Shown: piece after piece, positions 20,643-57,541 of the stretch
How positions within the stretch are numbered: the stretch's first letter is position 1
How the letters are laid out: each line of letters starts with the position of its first letter
Assembly: GCA_964483035.1 (NCBI GenBank)
Contig: CAYZZS010000002.1
Span: 24,872-88,871, forward strand
From: an uncultured Candidatus Saccharibacteria bacterium
Lineage (GTDB): Bacteria; Patescibacteriota; Saccharimonadia; Saccharimonadales; CAYZZS01
Length of the DNA stretch: 64,000 nucleotides
Direction of reading: 5' to 3'
Notes under the pieces: generated by a model
What the model saw: only the letters and a program-made list of their open reading frames with translations
What the model was told of the DNA's origin: nothing
Databases searched by the model: none
Position numbers and translations under genes: made by a program

Positions 20643-20671
20643 TTGCGTATAGATAACCACTAGAGTAGTAT
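20643..20671 (+). promoter_or_regulatory. Candidate sigma70 promoter for pyrG (TTGCGT-17-TAGTAT)
   Basis: Hexamer spacing is 17 nt; AGGAG RBS and GTG start follow roughly 25 nt downstream. Confidence 0.35.
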
Positions 20672-20696
20672 CTTTAGTATCAGAGTAGGAGATATA

Positions 20697-22298
20697 GTGG
20701 CTAAACGTACCACGAAGTATGTGTTTGTTACTGGCGGTGTGCTTTCAGGGCTCGGAAAGGGCATCACTGCCGCCTCCATCGGAAACCTTCTCAAAGCCCG
20801 AAAACTCAAAGTCAACATTCAAAAATGCGACCCTTATTTGAACGTCGATGCCGGTACGCTGAATCCGGCTGAGCACGGTGAGTGTTTTGTTACCAAGGAC
20901 GGAGCAGAGACTGATCTTGATCTTGGGCATTACGAGCGGTTTTTAGATCAGGAATTGACCCAGAGTAGTTCGTTGATGAGCGGTCGGGTGCTGCAAAAGG
21001 TAATCACCGATGAGCGCGCCGGCAAATACTCCGGAAAAACAGTTCAATTTATACCACATGTGACGCAGGCGATCCAGGAGCAGATTATTGCAACGGCCGA
21101 GGGGTACGACGTGCACATAGTGGAGATTGGCGGCACGGTCGGCGACTACGAAGGGCTTAGTTTTATTGAGGCTATCCGTGAACTGGCGATGAAAGTCGGA
21201 CGCGAGAACTGTGTGTTTGCACACGTGGTGTACGTACCGTATTTGGGTGCCAGCAAAGAGTTCAAAACCAAGCCAGCCCAGAATGCCGTACGTGAGCTTA
21301 GGGGCCTGGGTATCGTTCCGGACGTCCTCGTAGCACGCAGCGAAGAGCATCCACCGGCATCGGCTATTAAGAAGCTAAGCCTGTTTAGTGGCGTGGAAGA
21401 GCGGGCAATTGTACTGCTGCCCAATGCTAGGTCTATTTATGAAGTGCCATTGACACTCGAAGAGGCGGGTATAGCGAACGTCATCGTTGAAAAGTTACGG
21501 CTCAAAGCCTCAAAGCCACAGCTGAAAGAGTGGGAGAGCGTGGTGAAGCGGGCAATCGGTAACCATAAGCAAAAACTGACAGTCGGAGTTGTCGCGAAGT
21601 ATCTTGATAATCAAGACACCTATATGTCGGTACTCGAAGCTCTCCGCTCAGCTGCCTGGTGGAACGACGTCATCGTTGATATTGTCTGGGTTGATGCTGA
21701 GGAGCTGGAGCAGGCAAAGGGCTGGGAGAAAGCCTTTGCTGATATAGACGGTATTGTGGTTCCAGGCGGTTTCGGCGGCCGCGGTATCGAGGGTAAGATC
21801 CGGGCGGCCCAGTATGCGTTGACGAACAAGCTGCCGTATCTTGGTCTGTGCCTCGGCATGCAAGTTGCGGTCATTGCAGCGGCCAGACTTTCAGGACTTA
21901 CGGATGCCAACTCAACCGAATTTGATCCTAAAAGCGAACACCAGGTCATCAGTACGATGGCAGACCAATTGGGTAAAGAGCATACCGGCGGCACCATGCG
22001 GCTCGGTGATTACCCGTGCGTCATTGAAAAGGGCAGTGTAGCGGCTAAGATATACGGTGCAACGAAAATTACTGAACGGCACCGGCATCGGTACGAGGCG
22101 AATAACGAGTACCGTGATAGGTATGAGTCATGGGGGATTAAGGCGGTTGGTCATTCACCGGATGGTACGTTGGTGGAGATGATCGAGGCGATTAACCATC
22201 CATTCATGGTTGCCAGCCAGTTTCATCCGGAATTCAAGTCCCGTCCCAATCGACCACATCCATTGTTTAACGGCTTCGTACGGTCCCTAAAACGCTAA
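20697..22298 (+). CDS. pyrG: CTP synthase
   Basis: Full-length similarity; glutamine amidotransferase triad region (GLCLGMQ), GTG start with AGGAG RBS. Confidence 0.95.
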   Translation: MAKRTTKYVFVTGGVLSGLGKGITAASIGNLLKARKLKVNIQKCDPYLNVDAGTLNPAEHGECFVTKDGAETDLDLGHYERFLDQELTQSSSLMSGRVLQKVITDERAGKYSGKTVQFIPHVTQAIQEQIIATAEGYDVHIVEIGGTVGDYEGLSFIEAIRELAMKVGRENCVFAHVVYVPYLGASKEFKTKPAQNAVRELRGLGIVPDVLVARSEEHPPASAIKKLSLFSGVEERAIVLLPNARSIYEVPLTLEEAGIANVIVEKLRLKASKPQLKEWESVVKRAIGNHKQKLTVGVVAKYLDNQDTYMSVLEALRSAAWWNDVIVDIVWVDAEELEQAKGWEKAFADIDGIVVPGGFGGRGIEGKIRAAQYALTNKLPYLGLCLGMQVAVIAAARLSGLTDANSTEFDPKSEHQVISTMADQLGKEHTGGTMRLGDYPCVIEKGSVAAKIYGATKITERHRHRYEANNEYRDRYESWGIKAVGHSPDGTLVEMIEAINHPFMVASQFHPEFKSRPNRPHPLFNGFVRSLKR

Positions 22299-27957: not shown

Positions 27958-27986
27958 TTGACAAAACAGCAATATTTTGCTAAAAT
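27958..27986 (+). promoter_or_regulatory. Near-consensus sigma70 promoter (TTGACA-17-TAAAAT) for the PP2C-FHA gene
   Basis: Perfect -35 hexamer, 17-nt spacer, TAAAAT -10; roughly 25-nt A/C-rich leader without Shine-Dalgarno before ATG 28016. Confidence 0.55.
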
Positions 27987-28015
27987 AAGATATGTAACGT
28001 ACAAAAACAAACATT

Positions 28016-54876: not shown

Positions 54877-56133
54877 ATGGCTAAACATTTATTTCCAAAG
54901 GATTTTTTGTGGGGTGCCAGCACGGCAAGCCACCAGGTAGAGGGCGGTAATACCAACCAGTGGTCCGTCTGGGAGTTGGCAAACGCTCAGGAGCTGGCCA
55001 GAACAGCAAAAGCGCGGCTGGACTGGATGCCGAAATGGCCGGAGATCAAGGATGTTGCTCGTGACCCTGACAACTATGTTTCGGGCCGCGGTGTCGAGCA
55101 CTATAAGCGCTACAAACTAGACTTCGATATCGTCCGCAAGCTGAATCTCAACGCCTTCCGGTTTGGCATCGAGTGGGCCAGGATTGAGCCGCAAGAAGGG
55201 GTGTGGAGTCTGGAGGCGGTCGAGCATTACCGCGAGTATATCCGCGAAATGAAAGCGCGCGGTATCGAGCCAGTCCTGAACATTTGGCACTGGACAGTGC
55301 CAGTCTGGTTCGATGAGCTGGGCGGTTTTAAGAAGCGGAGTAATATCAAATACTTCGAACGCTTTGTCCGCAAAATTGCTGAGGAGTACGGCAAGGACAT
55401 CAACTACATCATCACCCTCAATGAGCCGAACGTTTTTGCCAGCTTTGGCTATCTAACGGGTGAGTGGCCACCACAGGAAAAGAGTGTCGTTAATTTTGTC
55501 AAAGTATATTGGAATCTGATGGTCGCGCATAAGCGGGCTTATACGATTATCAAGCGGCGCCGCAGTGGTATCCAGGTCGGCATCGCGCAGCAGCTAGCTA
55601 ACATCCAGCCAAAGCGACCGCATAACTACATTGACCATACGGCGACCAAATGGATGCGGTACTGGTGGAACTGGTGGTTTTTCAACCGCATCAAGCACTT
55701 CCAGGATTTCGTCGGCTTTAATTACTACTTTACTGACTACTACCAGGGGATTAGGCGGGCTAATCCGACCGTGCCGCTTAATGATCTGGCCTGGTATATG
55801 GAGCCGGAAGGTTTGCATCCGCTACTGGTGCGGGTTTGGGCGCATTACAAAAAGCCGATTATCGTTACTGAAAACGGCTTGGCTGATGCGAACGATGAGC
55901 ACCGACAGTGGTGGCTGCACGAGACGATGCTAGCCATGGAGCGTGCTATCAGCGAAGGAGTTGATGTGCGCGGCTACATGCACTGGAGTCTGCTTGATAA
56001 TTTTGAATGGAAGTACGGCTGGTGGCCGAAGTTCGGTTTAGTAGAAGTGGACCGCGAAAACGGTATGAAGCGCCGGGTGCGCCCCAGTGCAGTTTGGTGG
56101 GCGAAAGAGCTCAAGAGGATCCGCGGCCTGTAG
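54877..56133 (+). CDS. Glycoside hydrolase family 1 (beta-glucosidase-like)
   Basis: FLWGASTASHQVEG N-terminus, catalytic LNEP and ITENG motifs, HWSLLDNFEW. Confidence 0.85.
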   Translation: MAKHLFPKDFLWGASTASHQVEGGNTNQWSVWELANAQELARTAKARLDWMPKWPEIKDVARDPDNYVSGRGVEHYKRYKLDFDIVRKLNLNAFRFGIEWARIEPQEGVWSLEAVEHYREYIREMKARGIEPVLNIWHWTVPVWFDELGGFKKRSNIKYFERFVRKIAEEYGKDINYIITLNEPNVFASFGYLTGEWPPQEKSVVNFVKVYWNLMVAHKRAYTIIKRRRSGIQVGIAQQLANIQPKRPHNYIDHTATKWMRYWWNWWFFNRIKHFQDFVGFNYYFTDYYQGIRRANPTVPLNDLAWYMEPEGLHPLLVRVWAHYKKPIIVTENGLADANDEHRQWWLHETMLAMERAISEGVDVRGYMHWSLLDNFEWKYGWWPKFGLVEVDRENGMKRRVRPSAVWWAKELKRIRGL

Positions 56134-56150
56134 CTAACTTTGCAATAAAT

Positions 56151-56179
56151 TTGACATAAAACTAATATTGTGCTAATAT
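56151..56179 (+). promoter_or_regulatory. Near-consensus sigma70 promoter (TTGACA-17-TAATAT) giving a leaderless transcript
   Basis: Exact hexamers and spacing; predicted TSS 2-3 nt before ATG 56189. Confidence 0.5.
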
Positions 56180-56188
56180 GTAAGTGTT

Positions 56189-56356
56189 ATGTCAAAAAAC
56201 ACAAAACATACAACCAACAAAACACAAAAAAGTAACACCAGGCGTATGCCTGCCGGAGTGCTGGTCGGCGGCTTTGGCGATGAAGTCTATAGTGCCAAGT
56301 ATGGCCGCAGCAGCAGTGCGCCGGTCGTAGTTCTCTATAGGATTACGGGTATTTAA
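56189..56356 (+). CDS. Leaderless small ORF (55 aa; MSKNTKHTTNKTQKSNTRRMPAGVLVGGFGDEVYSAKYGRSSSAPVVVLYRITGI)
   Basis: Sits between a consensus promoter and a strong intrinsic terminator on the same strand; missed by the ORF track (below 60 aa). Confidence 0.35.
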   Translation: MSKNTKHTTNKTQKSNTRRMPAGVLVGGFGDEVYSAKYGRSSSAPVVVLYRITGI

Positions 56357-56409
56357 TCCTTCGCTATGGCCAAAGCGGCCGTGTATACAAAATAGCGTTG
56401 GGGCACGAT

Positions 56410-56446
56410 AAGCAGTCACTACATGTATGGTGGCTGCTTATTTTTT
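56410..56446 (+). terminator. Rho-independent terminator
   Basis: AAGCAGTCAC-(loop)-GTGGCTGCTT 10-bp stem (one G-U), followed by ATTTTTTG. Confidence 0.65.
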
Positions 56447-56499
56447 GCCAAACTGTGGATAGTTTGGCCCATTTTATCTGAAAAAAGCTCATAAAGTAC

Positions 56500-56551
56500 T
56501 TGCAAGTGGGTAATGGTGGGTAGTAAACTCATGTCAGTGGGTAATCGTGGG
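56500..56551 (+). promoter_or_regulatory. mraZ promoter (TTGCAA-18-TAAACT) overlapped by four GTGGG direct repeats = candidate MraZ operator
   Basis: GTGGG at 56506, 56516, 56537, 56547 (10-bp periodicity within pairs). E. coli MraZ binds TGGGN direct repeats in its own promoter. Confidence 0.5.
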
Positions 56552-56615
56552 TAGCCCAAAAAGATGACTACCAACGACAAAAATAAAAACCACTAGCAAA
56601 TTAAAGGGACAACCT

Positions 56616-56975
56616 GTGGCAACGGTAGACTACTTCGAACGAAAGCTTGACGACAAGCGCCGGTTAACCATACCGGCGGAGCTTAGGGCTGAGTTCGCGA
56701 GCGGAGTAGTCATAACCCGGGGCTTCAAGCAGTACCTGCACCTGTATCCCAAATCAGTATGGGATGAAGAAGTAGAACCGCAACTGAAGGGAAGTATCCT
56801 GGACGAGCAGATTGCGGATCTTAACGTACAGTTCCGATCGGGCAAATGCGAGAGTCCGCTCGATCAGAAGCAGGGCAGGGTAACACTTGAGCAGCACTTG
56901 CTCGACTACGCGGCAATCGATCGTGATGTCGTAGCGGTGCGCGCAGGAAGGTACTGGCGGCTTATGGCGGCATAG
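56616..56975 (+). CDS. mraZ: Transcriptional regulator MraZ (short form, 119 aa)
   Basis: First gene of dcw cluster; DDKRRLTIP and DQKQGRVTL = two DxxxR-type motifs; GTG start with AAGGG RBS. Confidence 0.75.
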   Translation: MATVDYFERKLDDKRRLTIPAELRAEFASGVVITRGFKQYLHLYPKSVWDEEVEPQLKGSILDEQIADLNVQFRSGKCESPLDQKQGRVTLEQHLLDYAAIDRDVVAVRAGRYWRLMAA

Positions 56976-57541
56976 TACGAAATTTGCGAACCAAGCAGCA
57001 CCTTAACAATCAGGCAAAAGACAGCACAAAACCGAATAATAGTAATTTATGCATGTTGCATTCGGATGAAGCGCAAGGCGACAGCACGGAGCGGACTGAG
57101 GCGTACGTTATGTACGACAAAGGAGCACTAGGGCTAGCAACGCAGCGATTCGCCGAAAGTAGCGGACAGAGTTCTGGTTCTGCCAGAAGTCAGGCCGATG
57201 CGATGCAATGGGCATAAAGGTTACCTATTCGGCAGTCAACAAGTGGGCTTTATAAGGAACCACTCTAAAAACCTTCGCACCTTATTTGAAAACACCTCCC
57301 AAAACTCCACCTCACACATAAGTCTCTCAAAACTTTCTAAGAGCTGTCAGAAGTGGTAGCAAAGATAATAATCTTTGCCAACGCCTTTCTTCTGGCATCA
57401 CGGCTTTTAGTACTTACAAAAACAAAAACTTACAAATCAAAAACAAAAAAGTTGGCTGCTGATTAGGTGACCTTGCTAAAACAAAAAATAAAAACAAAAA
57501 AGTGCACTCTATGACAATGTGCATGGGGTACACTAGCAAGT

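Follow-up and report, generated by a model that had tools for sequence, protein, structure and literature searches.

A predicted leaderless mini-cistron upstream of mraZ in a Saccharibacteria genome, a putative truncated derivative of a variable small-gene slot

Introduction

Leaderless mRNAs are known from phage lambda, where cI is transcribed from PRM, and from the Actinobacteria and Deinococcus. In such genes the -10 box puts the start of the transcript near the AUG, there is no Shine-Dalgarno sequence, and the region past the AUG is unstructured and CA-rich. Leaderless translation is enhanced by CA repeats that follow the AUG and is inhibited both by distance from the 5' end and by local structure (PMC9031893, which cites Martin-Farmer & Janssen 1999 for the CA-rich enhancer). 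For Saccharibacteria, we found nothing relevant on transcription start sites, leaderless genes or small RNAs (sRNAs) in the literature searched. Here we describe a candidate leaderless mini-cistron that lies directly upstream of mraZ in an uncultured Candidatus Saccharibacteria bacterium (assembly GCA_964483035.1, contig CAYZZS010000002.1, positions 24,872 to 88,871 of the forward strand). We refer to this stretch of 64,000 nucleotides (nt) as the window, and all coordinates without a locus label are positions in it.

We find that the promoter, start and terminator signals of the mini-cistron exceed chance and that the same geometry recurs in relatives at the same position, a slot between a GH1 beta-glucosidase gene and mraZ that holds varying small genes. 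Our favored reading, to which we give somewhat better than an even chance, is that the mini-cistron is an orphan, species-specific, truncated and probably decaying derivative of such a slot gene, one that has kept the standard promoter, the leaderless start, the head of the transcript and the terminator.

Results

The mini-cistron sits in the 483-nt gap between the GH1 beta-glucosidase gene (54877-56133, plus strand) and mraZ (56616-56975, plus strand). The MraZ protein of the window is 76-85% identical to that of many Saccharimonadales assemblies, which places the genome in the Saccharibacteria (TM7). The original prediction, made from the window alone, proposed an independent leaderless transcription unit at this position, and this proposal is backed by the sequence and by the layout of the slot in relatives. 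The promoter that it named, TTGACA-17-TAATAT on the plus strand at 56151-56179, has exactly these coordinates, and we find in addition that it is a sigma-70-type promoter with an extended -10 element. TTGACA (56151-56156) is followed by a 17-nt spacer that ends in TG (56171-56172) ahead of TAATAT (56174-56179), giving the form TTGACA-17-TGc-TAATAT and 10 of 12 consensus matches. Sites of the type TTGACA-N16-18-TGn-TAnnnT occur twice in the window against an expectation of 0.11, and at least two such sites are reached by 0.5% of random sequences. From the position of the -10 box, transcription is predicted to start at 56184-56187 (plus strand), which would leave a 5' untranslated region (UTR) of about 2-5 nt before the AUG. 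The ATG at 56189 does lie within a few nt of the predicted start, as proposed, being 9 nt past the end of the -10 box (56179), and a Shine-Dalgarno sequence is absent from the 9 nt that separate the two (GTAAGTGTT). The head of the transcript past the start codon (56192-56236, plus strand) is 91% A+C and unfolded, with a minimum free energy of 0.0 kcal/mol over the first 50 nt.

At its other end the unit is closed by an intrinsic terminator on the plus strand (56408-56446), which had been described as a 10-bp hairpin plus T6 (56410-56446) and proves to be stronger. Its stem has 12-15 bp (arms 56408-56419 and 56430-56441) around the loop ACAUGU, the T6 run lies at 56441-56446, and it folds at -20.5 kcal/mol with z = -6.5. 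The whole element is identical (0 single-nucleotide polymorphisms, SNPs) in two same-species assemblies that were made independently, from the sequencing runs SRR7082975 and SRR23005565, and is therefore not an assembly artefact.

This manner of expression would be ordinary for the genome and for the locus, judging by the signals around other start codons. Among the 50 long open reading frames (ORFs) of the window, 14 have a strict -10 box (at least 5 of 6 matches) ending 5-11 nt before the start, as against 3% of all ATGs. A clear Shine-Dalgarno sequence stands at the first start in only about 8 of the 50. The second promoter of the extended type in the window, a twin of the first, belongs to an ORF of 496 amino acids (aa). 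There (27958-28015), TTGACA-17-TGc-TAAAAT is followed by a 29-nt A/C-rich leader (..GTACAAAAACAAACATT) without a Shine-Dalgarno sequence and then by the ATG; the product is what we take, from its sequence, to be a PP2C-phosphatase/FHA protein. The octamer ACAAAAAC is over-represented, occurring 7 times in the window where 1.3 copies are expected.

We compared the slot with the corresponding interval at more than 100 related loci of other Saccharibacteria, where the distance from the GH1 gene to mraZ runs from about 240-290 nt up to about 1000 nt. Short gaps are empty (for example L133, L002, L006 and L013, in our numbering of the related loci), and longer gaps contain one small gene or two, which belong to several unrelated kinds and encode proteins of 68-215 aa. 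The first kind, family A, comprises membrane proteins of 80-96 aa with a conserved C-terminal motif and no Pfam match, found at 18 loci. Family A proteins have an N-terminal membrane helix and end in ..RE.E..RMPVRFD.G.R..TISG or REREESAPHYISY..TQRTP.RSGK, and their genes are usually leaderless. They lie at L001 2080-2355, L003 1897-2148, L015 2533-2784, L018 217-483, L020 2519-2776, L027 2191-2451, L070 2077-2364 and 11 more loci. The second kind are K/T-rich proteins with a C-terminal helix. The third kind, for example in L135, L005 and L012, consists of an N-terminal tail, the residues RR, a membrane helix and a LysM domain (PF01476).

The slot genes of relatives are expressed from signals that match those of the window closely. 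Their promoters are of the TTGACA-17-TGn-TAnnnT form, and the spacing from -10 box to ATG is 5-10 nt in 35 of 49 promoter/ORF pairs at the slot (9 nt in the window). Across 36 leaderless slot genes, A+C makes up 72% of the 45 nt that follow the ATG and 51% of the remainder of the gene, and the first 50 nt fold at -1.7 kcal/mol against -12.2 kcal/mol; the corresponding values for the window are 91% and 0.0 kcal/mol. From the stop codon of the slot gene to mraZ the distance is 215-300 nt in relatives and 259 nt in the window. The order of elements that follow a slot gene is also conserved: TAGCGT, a hairpin with a CAYATRT loop and a T-run, CTGTGGATAA, and then the mraZ promoter. In many relatives (C)TAGCGT stands at the stop codon of the last slot gene or at most about 12 nt past it, and a terminator of -10 kcal/mol or below precedes the mraZ promoter in 51 of 103 relatives. 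The loop, 3' arm and T-run of the window's terminator align with the intergenic sequence of relatives.

Between these conserved signals, the reading frame itself gives a different picture. The frame (56189-56356, plus strand) comprises 55 codons and a TAA stop, and its translation agrees with the predicted peptide letter for letter. It had been said to be missed by the list of ORFs, and it is indeed absent there, as it falls below the usual cut-off of 60 aa. The first 19 residues are a K/N/T-rich tail that ends in RR, residues 20-30 are the hydrophobic stretch MPAGVLVGGFG, and residues 31-55 have no relatives. An internal in-frame ATG (Met20; 56246-56248, plus strand), which lies within the hairpin CAGGC-GUAU-GCCUG, is the start used in automatic gene calls and gives a 36-aa product; one such call, P0001, equals residues 20-55 exactly.

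Using a codon model trained on 43 long ORFs of the window, we find that the ORF scores +6.7 in frame 0 and -11.8 and -6.7 in the other plus-strand frames. For real genes the scores are +15.5 +/- 6.6 in frame, with about -14 and -11 in the other two frames. The signal sits in codons 20-40 (56249-56300) and is gone after about 56310. The codon statistics thus suggest that frame 0 is coding, now or recently. A 75-aa ORF on the minus strand, which had been set aside as an alternative lacking such signals, scores -7.9, a non-coding value, and has no match in Pfam.

Only the beginning of the peptide resembles slot proteins. Against a seed profile of the LysM family, residues 1-27 score 8.4 bits, a value reached by 3 of 5000 shuffles, and against a larger LysM set and against family A they score about 4 bits (p about 0.007). 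The DNA alignment with L135 stays in frame from the -10 box through RR-MPAGVLVGGFG of the window and RR-IGASGLALGLG of L135. What follows RR is not a complete transmembrane helix, since the 11 residues MPAGVLVGGFG are followed by D-E, and the profile alignment ends at residue 27. The Pfam scan of the ORF is empty for the LysM domain (PF01476) and for every other family, while the L005 protein matches LysM at 6e-6. The family A profile, which includes the C-terminal RMPxxF..G.R..T.SG, finds nothing at E <= 10 in any frame of the window; aligned directly to the ORF, it scores 4.3 bits at the N-terminus only and at most 0 in the downstream frames. We also asked whether the ORF is a pseudogene of family A or the LysM family broken by a frameshift, scoring all three frames and a "repaired" join, and rejected this origin because only the N-terminus scores.

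Downstream of the ORF, the TAGCGT motif is present at 56393-56398 (plus strand), 36 nt past the TAA. Its TAG is the second stop in frame 0 (68 codons), and the slot genes of L018 and L004 end at this motif. The TAA at 56354 could therefore be a premature stop, though the 12 open codons that follow it are not significant alone.

To look for relatives of the element we searched at the level of protein, DNA and RNA. In a word-indexed search of 5.8 billion protein clusters and in a full HMMER search of 1.84 billion representatives, the 55-aa peptide found only the same-species 36-aa call (residues 20-55). At the DNA level, blastn and nhmmer against 136 syntenic or related loci returned similarity in the promoter region and one weak collinear match in L018, with E of 1.5e-4 when the promoter is included and 0.13-0.19 without it. 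In L133, the closest relative as judged by GH1, mraZ follows GH1 with no insert. Searches for intermediate relatives with MraZ in genome contigs, with GH1 in metagenome contigs and a protein database, and by exact-protein look-ups found none between the same species (99.9-100%) and 73% GH1 identity. The original prediction had raised a small regulatory protein or an sRNA and had named conservation of the reading frame in relatives as the point to check; the frame is conserved in no relative outside the same species, and neither the ORF nor its DNA is found there, so a protein or RNA of any conserved kind is not supported. Within the 64 kb there is no paralogue as a second copy, and a family A match at 20667-20873 is spurious, lying inside the CTP synthase gene. 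A mobile origin was likewise rejected, as there is no phage or plasmid similarity and there are no flanking direct repeats.

The best surviving alternative, which we regard as unlikely but worth keeping in view, is that the mini-cistron encodes a functional, lineage-specific protein of 55 aa (or 36 aa) made from a leaderless mRNA, soluble and basic-tailed and perhaps tied to the neighboring division and cell-wall genes. The signals fit an efficiently expressed leaderless mRNA, codons 20-55 score +8.9, which is at the level of real genes and is matched by 3 of 5000 shuffles, an open frame of 54 further codons has P = 0.04 by shuffling, and the slot genes of relatives do encode small proteins. 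However, neither protein search gives a homologue, the closest relative lacks the element altogether, the hydrophobic stretch is too short for the type of anchor found in the neighbors, and the codon signal fades across the last ~15 codons. There is also no domain and no confident fold, although the single-sequence structure prediction (predicted local distance difference test, pLDDT, 55.7) is uninformative and a weak test of this. A related and more doubtful possibility is that the remains of a membrane-protein gene just before the division cluster have given rise to a newly evolved, functional and species-specific regulator, kept under a top-strength leaderless promoter and acting as the 55- or 36-aa peptide or as the transcript; if true, this would be the birth of a micro-gene caught in the act in an ultra-small symbiotic bacterium.

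We next consider the transcript as an RNA. A trans-acting sRNA of ~260 nt, with the unstructured A/C-rich 5' end pairing with targets and the ORF incidental, would account for the strong promoter and terminator and for a size typical of sRNAs. In the transcript the 5' region is single-stranded, there are some internal hairpins, and segments far apart are complementary (56266-56281 with 56366-56381); as a whole it folds at z = -3.3 to -3.7. Most of this score, however, comes from the terminator: without it z is -1.6 to -1.95, so that the remaining structure is marginally above background (36 control windows from the genome have mean 0, standard deviation 1.0 and minimum -2.3), compared with -7.7 for a covarying RNA 800 nt downstream (see below). 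Rfam 15 at gathering score over the whole window and ARAGORN returned nothing, and Rfam at E <= 10 over the region gave only a spurious miRNA match on the terminator hairpin. With no conservation no covariation can be demonstrated, and there is no complementary target for the transcript within the 64 kb. The A/C-rich head is accounted for by leaderless translation and is common to true protein genes, and a codon bias specific to one frame is not expected of an sRNA. We therefore consider an sRNA very unlikely.

An even less probable reading makes the short transcript a cis-acting leader, attenuator or insulator for mraZ, whose translation or folding would set the level of read-through. The unit shares its strand with mraZ and lies immediately ahead of it, the transcript can form alternative pairings, and terminators before the mraZ promoter are common among relatives. 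But beyond the terminator mraZ is served by a conserved promoter of its own with four MraZ boxes, and this promoter region is near-identical in relatives that lack the element. Moreover, no alternative fold competes with the 5' arm of the terminator, which is strong. Finally, chance co-occurrence of promoter-, ORF- and terminator-like sequence is extremely improbable, for although loose promoter and terminator matches are about as frequent in a generic scan of the window as in shuffles and the P value of the open frame is not vanishing, the extended -10 consensus is expected about 10-20 times more rarely than observed, the terminator folds at z = -6.5, and the same layout is found at the same place in dozens of relatives.

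The promoter of mraZ itself is marked by a promoter-like site, TTGCAA (56500-56505) and, after 18 nt, TAAACT (56524-56529), which is overlapped by four GTGGGTA repeats (56506, 56516, 56537 and 56547) that form two units of 19 nt at a distance of 31 nt. The window has five copies of GTGGGTA, four of them in this block (56500-56553), which is near-identical in relatives, and the repeats are presumably MraZ operator boxes. Within the 5' UTR of mraZ, the block AAAAATAAAAACCACTAGCA (56579-56598) is invariant in four aligned genomes. A DnaA-box-like motif, CTGTGGATA(A/G), lies at 56453-56461 and is conserved ~45 nt upstream of the mraZ -35 element (L002, L133, L135 and many others). In L007, L019 and L023 the stem of the terminator just before this motif consists of two inverted perfect DnaA boxes (TTATCCAC...GTGGATAA). 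The motif may be a regulatory site. A replication origin was considered here and rejected: GC skew is positive throughout the window, the flanking genes are on the same strand and there is no excess of DnaA boxes.

The promoter and start codon of the mini-cistron are flanked by a perfect 10-nt inverted repeat (56150-56196), TTTGACATAA at 56150-56159 and TTATGTCAAA at 56187-56196, which when extended covers 19 nt at 84%. Weaker versions are present in L009 and L070. The repeat could be an operator, a chance occurrence or a by-product of TTGACA and ATG-TCA. It also gives rise to a weak antisense promoter-like site (TTGACA 56195, CACAAT 56167). A type I toxin-antitoxin system was rejected: the peptide lacks hydrophobic character, and this antisense site is directed away from the ORF.

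The same part of the window contains a far more striking element than the mini-cistron. In the 566-nt gap between mraZ and rsmH we find a candidate structured RNA of ~260 nt (57216-57475, plus strand), whose DNA is conserved in practically all of the Saccharibacteria loci retrieved (nhmmer E 1e-23 to 1e-46). It is closed by a 23-bp long-range helix (57216-57240 with 57451-57475) and has a 5-bp hairpin. When 30 loci are aligned, 98.5% of the cells are paired and compensatory changes are seen at 13 pairs, a covariation that 0 of 500 shuffles reach, with slid controls at 0-3. Many of the pairs are G-U, and the RNA is therefore assigned to the plus strand. The structure encloses an invariant single-stranded segment of 39 nt, AACACCUCCCAAAACUCCACCUCACACAUAAGUCUCUCA (57291-57329), that includes the anti-Shine-Dalgarno-like CACCUCC, and there are also invariant ACAAAAACAAAAAC runs. 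The window's copy folds at z = -7.7. Rfam gives no family for this RNA even at E <= 10, the mraW motif (RF01746) included. In its position upstream of rsmH it resembles that actinobacterial motif, a structured RNA associated with the mraZ-rsmH/mraW region; the likeness bears on the RNA at 57216-57475 and not on the mini-cistron, which lies upstream of mraZ. A role as a 16S rRNA mimic or in the autoregulation of RsmH is pure speculation. Between mraZ and this RNA, same-species contigs carry a called 54-aa ORF (MLHSDEAQGD...; 57053-57217, plus strand) that has no Pfam entry and whose DNA is conserved in only some relatives.

Discussion

We return to the reading that we favor, a truncated and probably decaying derivative of a slot gene. 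It is suggested by the combination of slot expression signals that are kept with a coding body that is species-specific and has no complete helix, no domain and no relatives. In this reading, the housekeeping-sigma RNA polymerase would use the extended -10 promoter at 56151-56179 and would begin transcription 2-5 nt before the AUG at 56189. Ribosomes would load straight onto the 5'-terminal AUG, aided by the structure-free, A/C-rich first ~45 nt, an effect known from E. coli. The hairpin and U6 (56408-56446) would end the transcript and would probably also block read-through from the GH1 gene before it reaches the promoter of mraZ with its MraZ boxes. The unit is probably still transcribed and may be translated into a peptide of 55 aa, or of 36 aa from Met20. 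Its coding body, however, would retain of a slot gene only the tail, RR and a half-length hydrophobic stretch, with no complete helix and no domain.

Several observations weigh against such an origin. The similarity at the N-terminus is weak and of a generic sort, consisting of a polar tail and the hydrophobic residues after it; two unrelated slot families give it about the same score, and its shuffle p values of 0.001-0.01 are post hoc. Profiles find neither LysM nor the C-terminal motif of family A in any frame downstream. We infer descent from a slot gene, as opposed to a new ORF behind an old promoter, and given this weak, generic match and the lack of any LysM or family A trace downstream, it stays an inference. 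A perfectly kept promoter and terminator around a dead gene is also somewhat unexpected; the kept signals may reflect insulation of mraZ, or a functional peptide after all. Lastly, the same-species copies have no divergence (0 SNPs) and thus give no measure of selection.

Taken alone, the mini-cistron is of little consequence, being a single species-specific micro-ORF that has standard signals and nothing to suggest a conserved role. It is of use as an illustration. The slot ahead of mraZ appears as a hot spot in which small envelope proteins are exchanged, shortened and lost, and TTGACA-17-TGn-TAnnnT with an A/C-rich head appears to be the normal means of small-gene expression at the locus, in a layout found at about a quarter of the genes of this genome. 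Given that gene callers miss the ORF or start it at Met20, the mini-cistron also serves as an example of how leaderless small genes may be mis-annotated in these genomes.

Three known kinds of system invite comparison. Dual-function sRNAs (SgrS/SgrT, RNAIII/hld and SR1/SR1P) are, like the window unit, short transcripts with their own promoter and terminator and a small ORF. They have a conserved structure, known pairing regions and an internal ORF with a ribosome-binding site, whereas the window transcript has no conservation, no target and an ORF at its 5' end, so the analogy is a loose one. The nearest likeness in position is to the slot proteins with tail, RR, transmembrane helix and LysM domain (L135, L005 and L012). 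Their genes share with the window ORF the promoter type, the leaderless start, a K/N/T-rich tail-RR-hydrophobic beginning, and a stop ~260 nt before mraZ that is followed by TAGCGT, the terminator and CTGTGGATA. Unlike them, the window ORF has a hydrophobic stretch of ~11 residues and no LysM in any frame, its overall similarity is not significant, and at 55 aa it is shorter than every slot gene seen (68-215 aa). We searched for the defining domains of the LysM slot family and of family A, and the window ORF has neither; it is not a member of either family. The closest likeness in expression is to the leaderless mRNAs of lambda cI, Actinobacteria and Deinococcus, with which the unit shares a -10 box that puts the predicted transcript start near the AUG, the missing Shine-Dalgarno sequence and the unstructured CA-rich region past the AUG. 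It differs in that its predicted 5' end lies 2-5 nt before the AUG instead of on it and in that its product is an orphan of 55 aa. By its sequence features, we propose that the mini-cistron belongs to the leaderless class.

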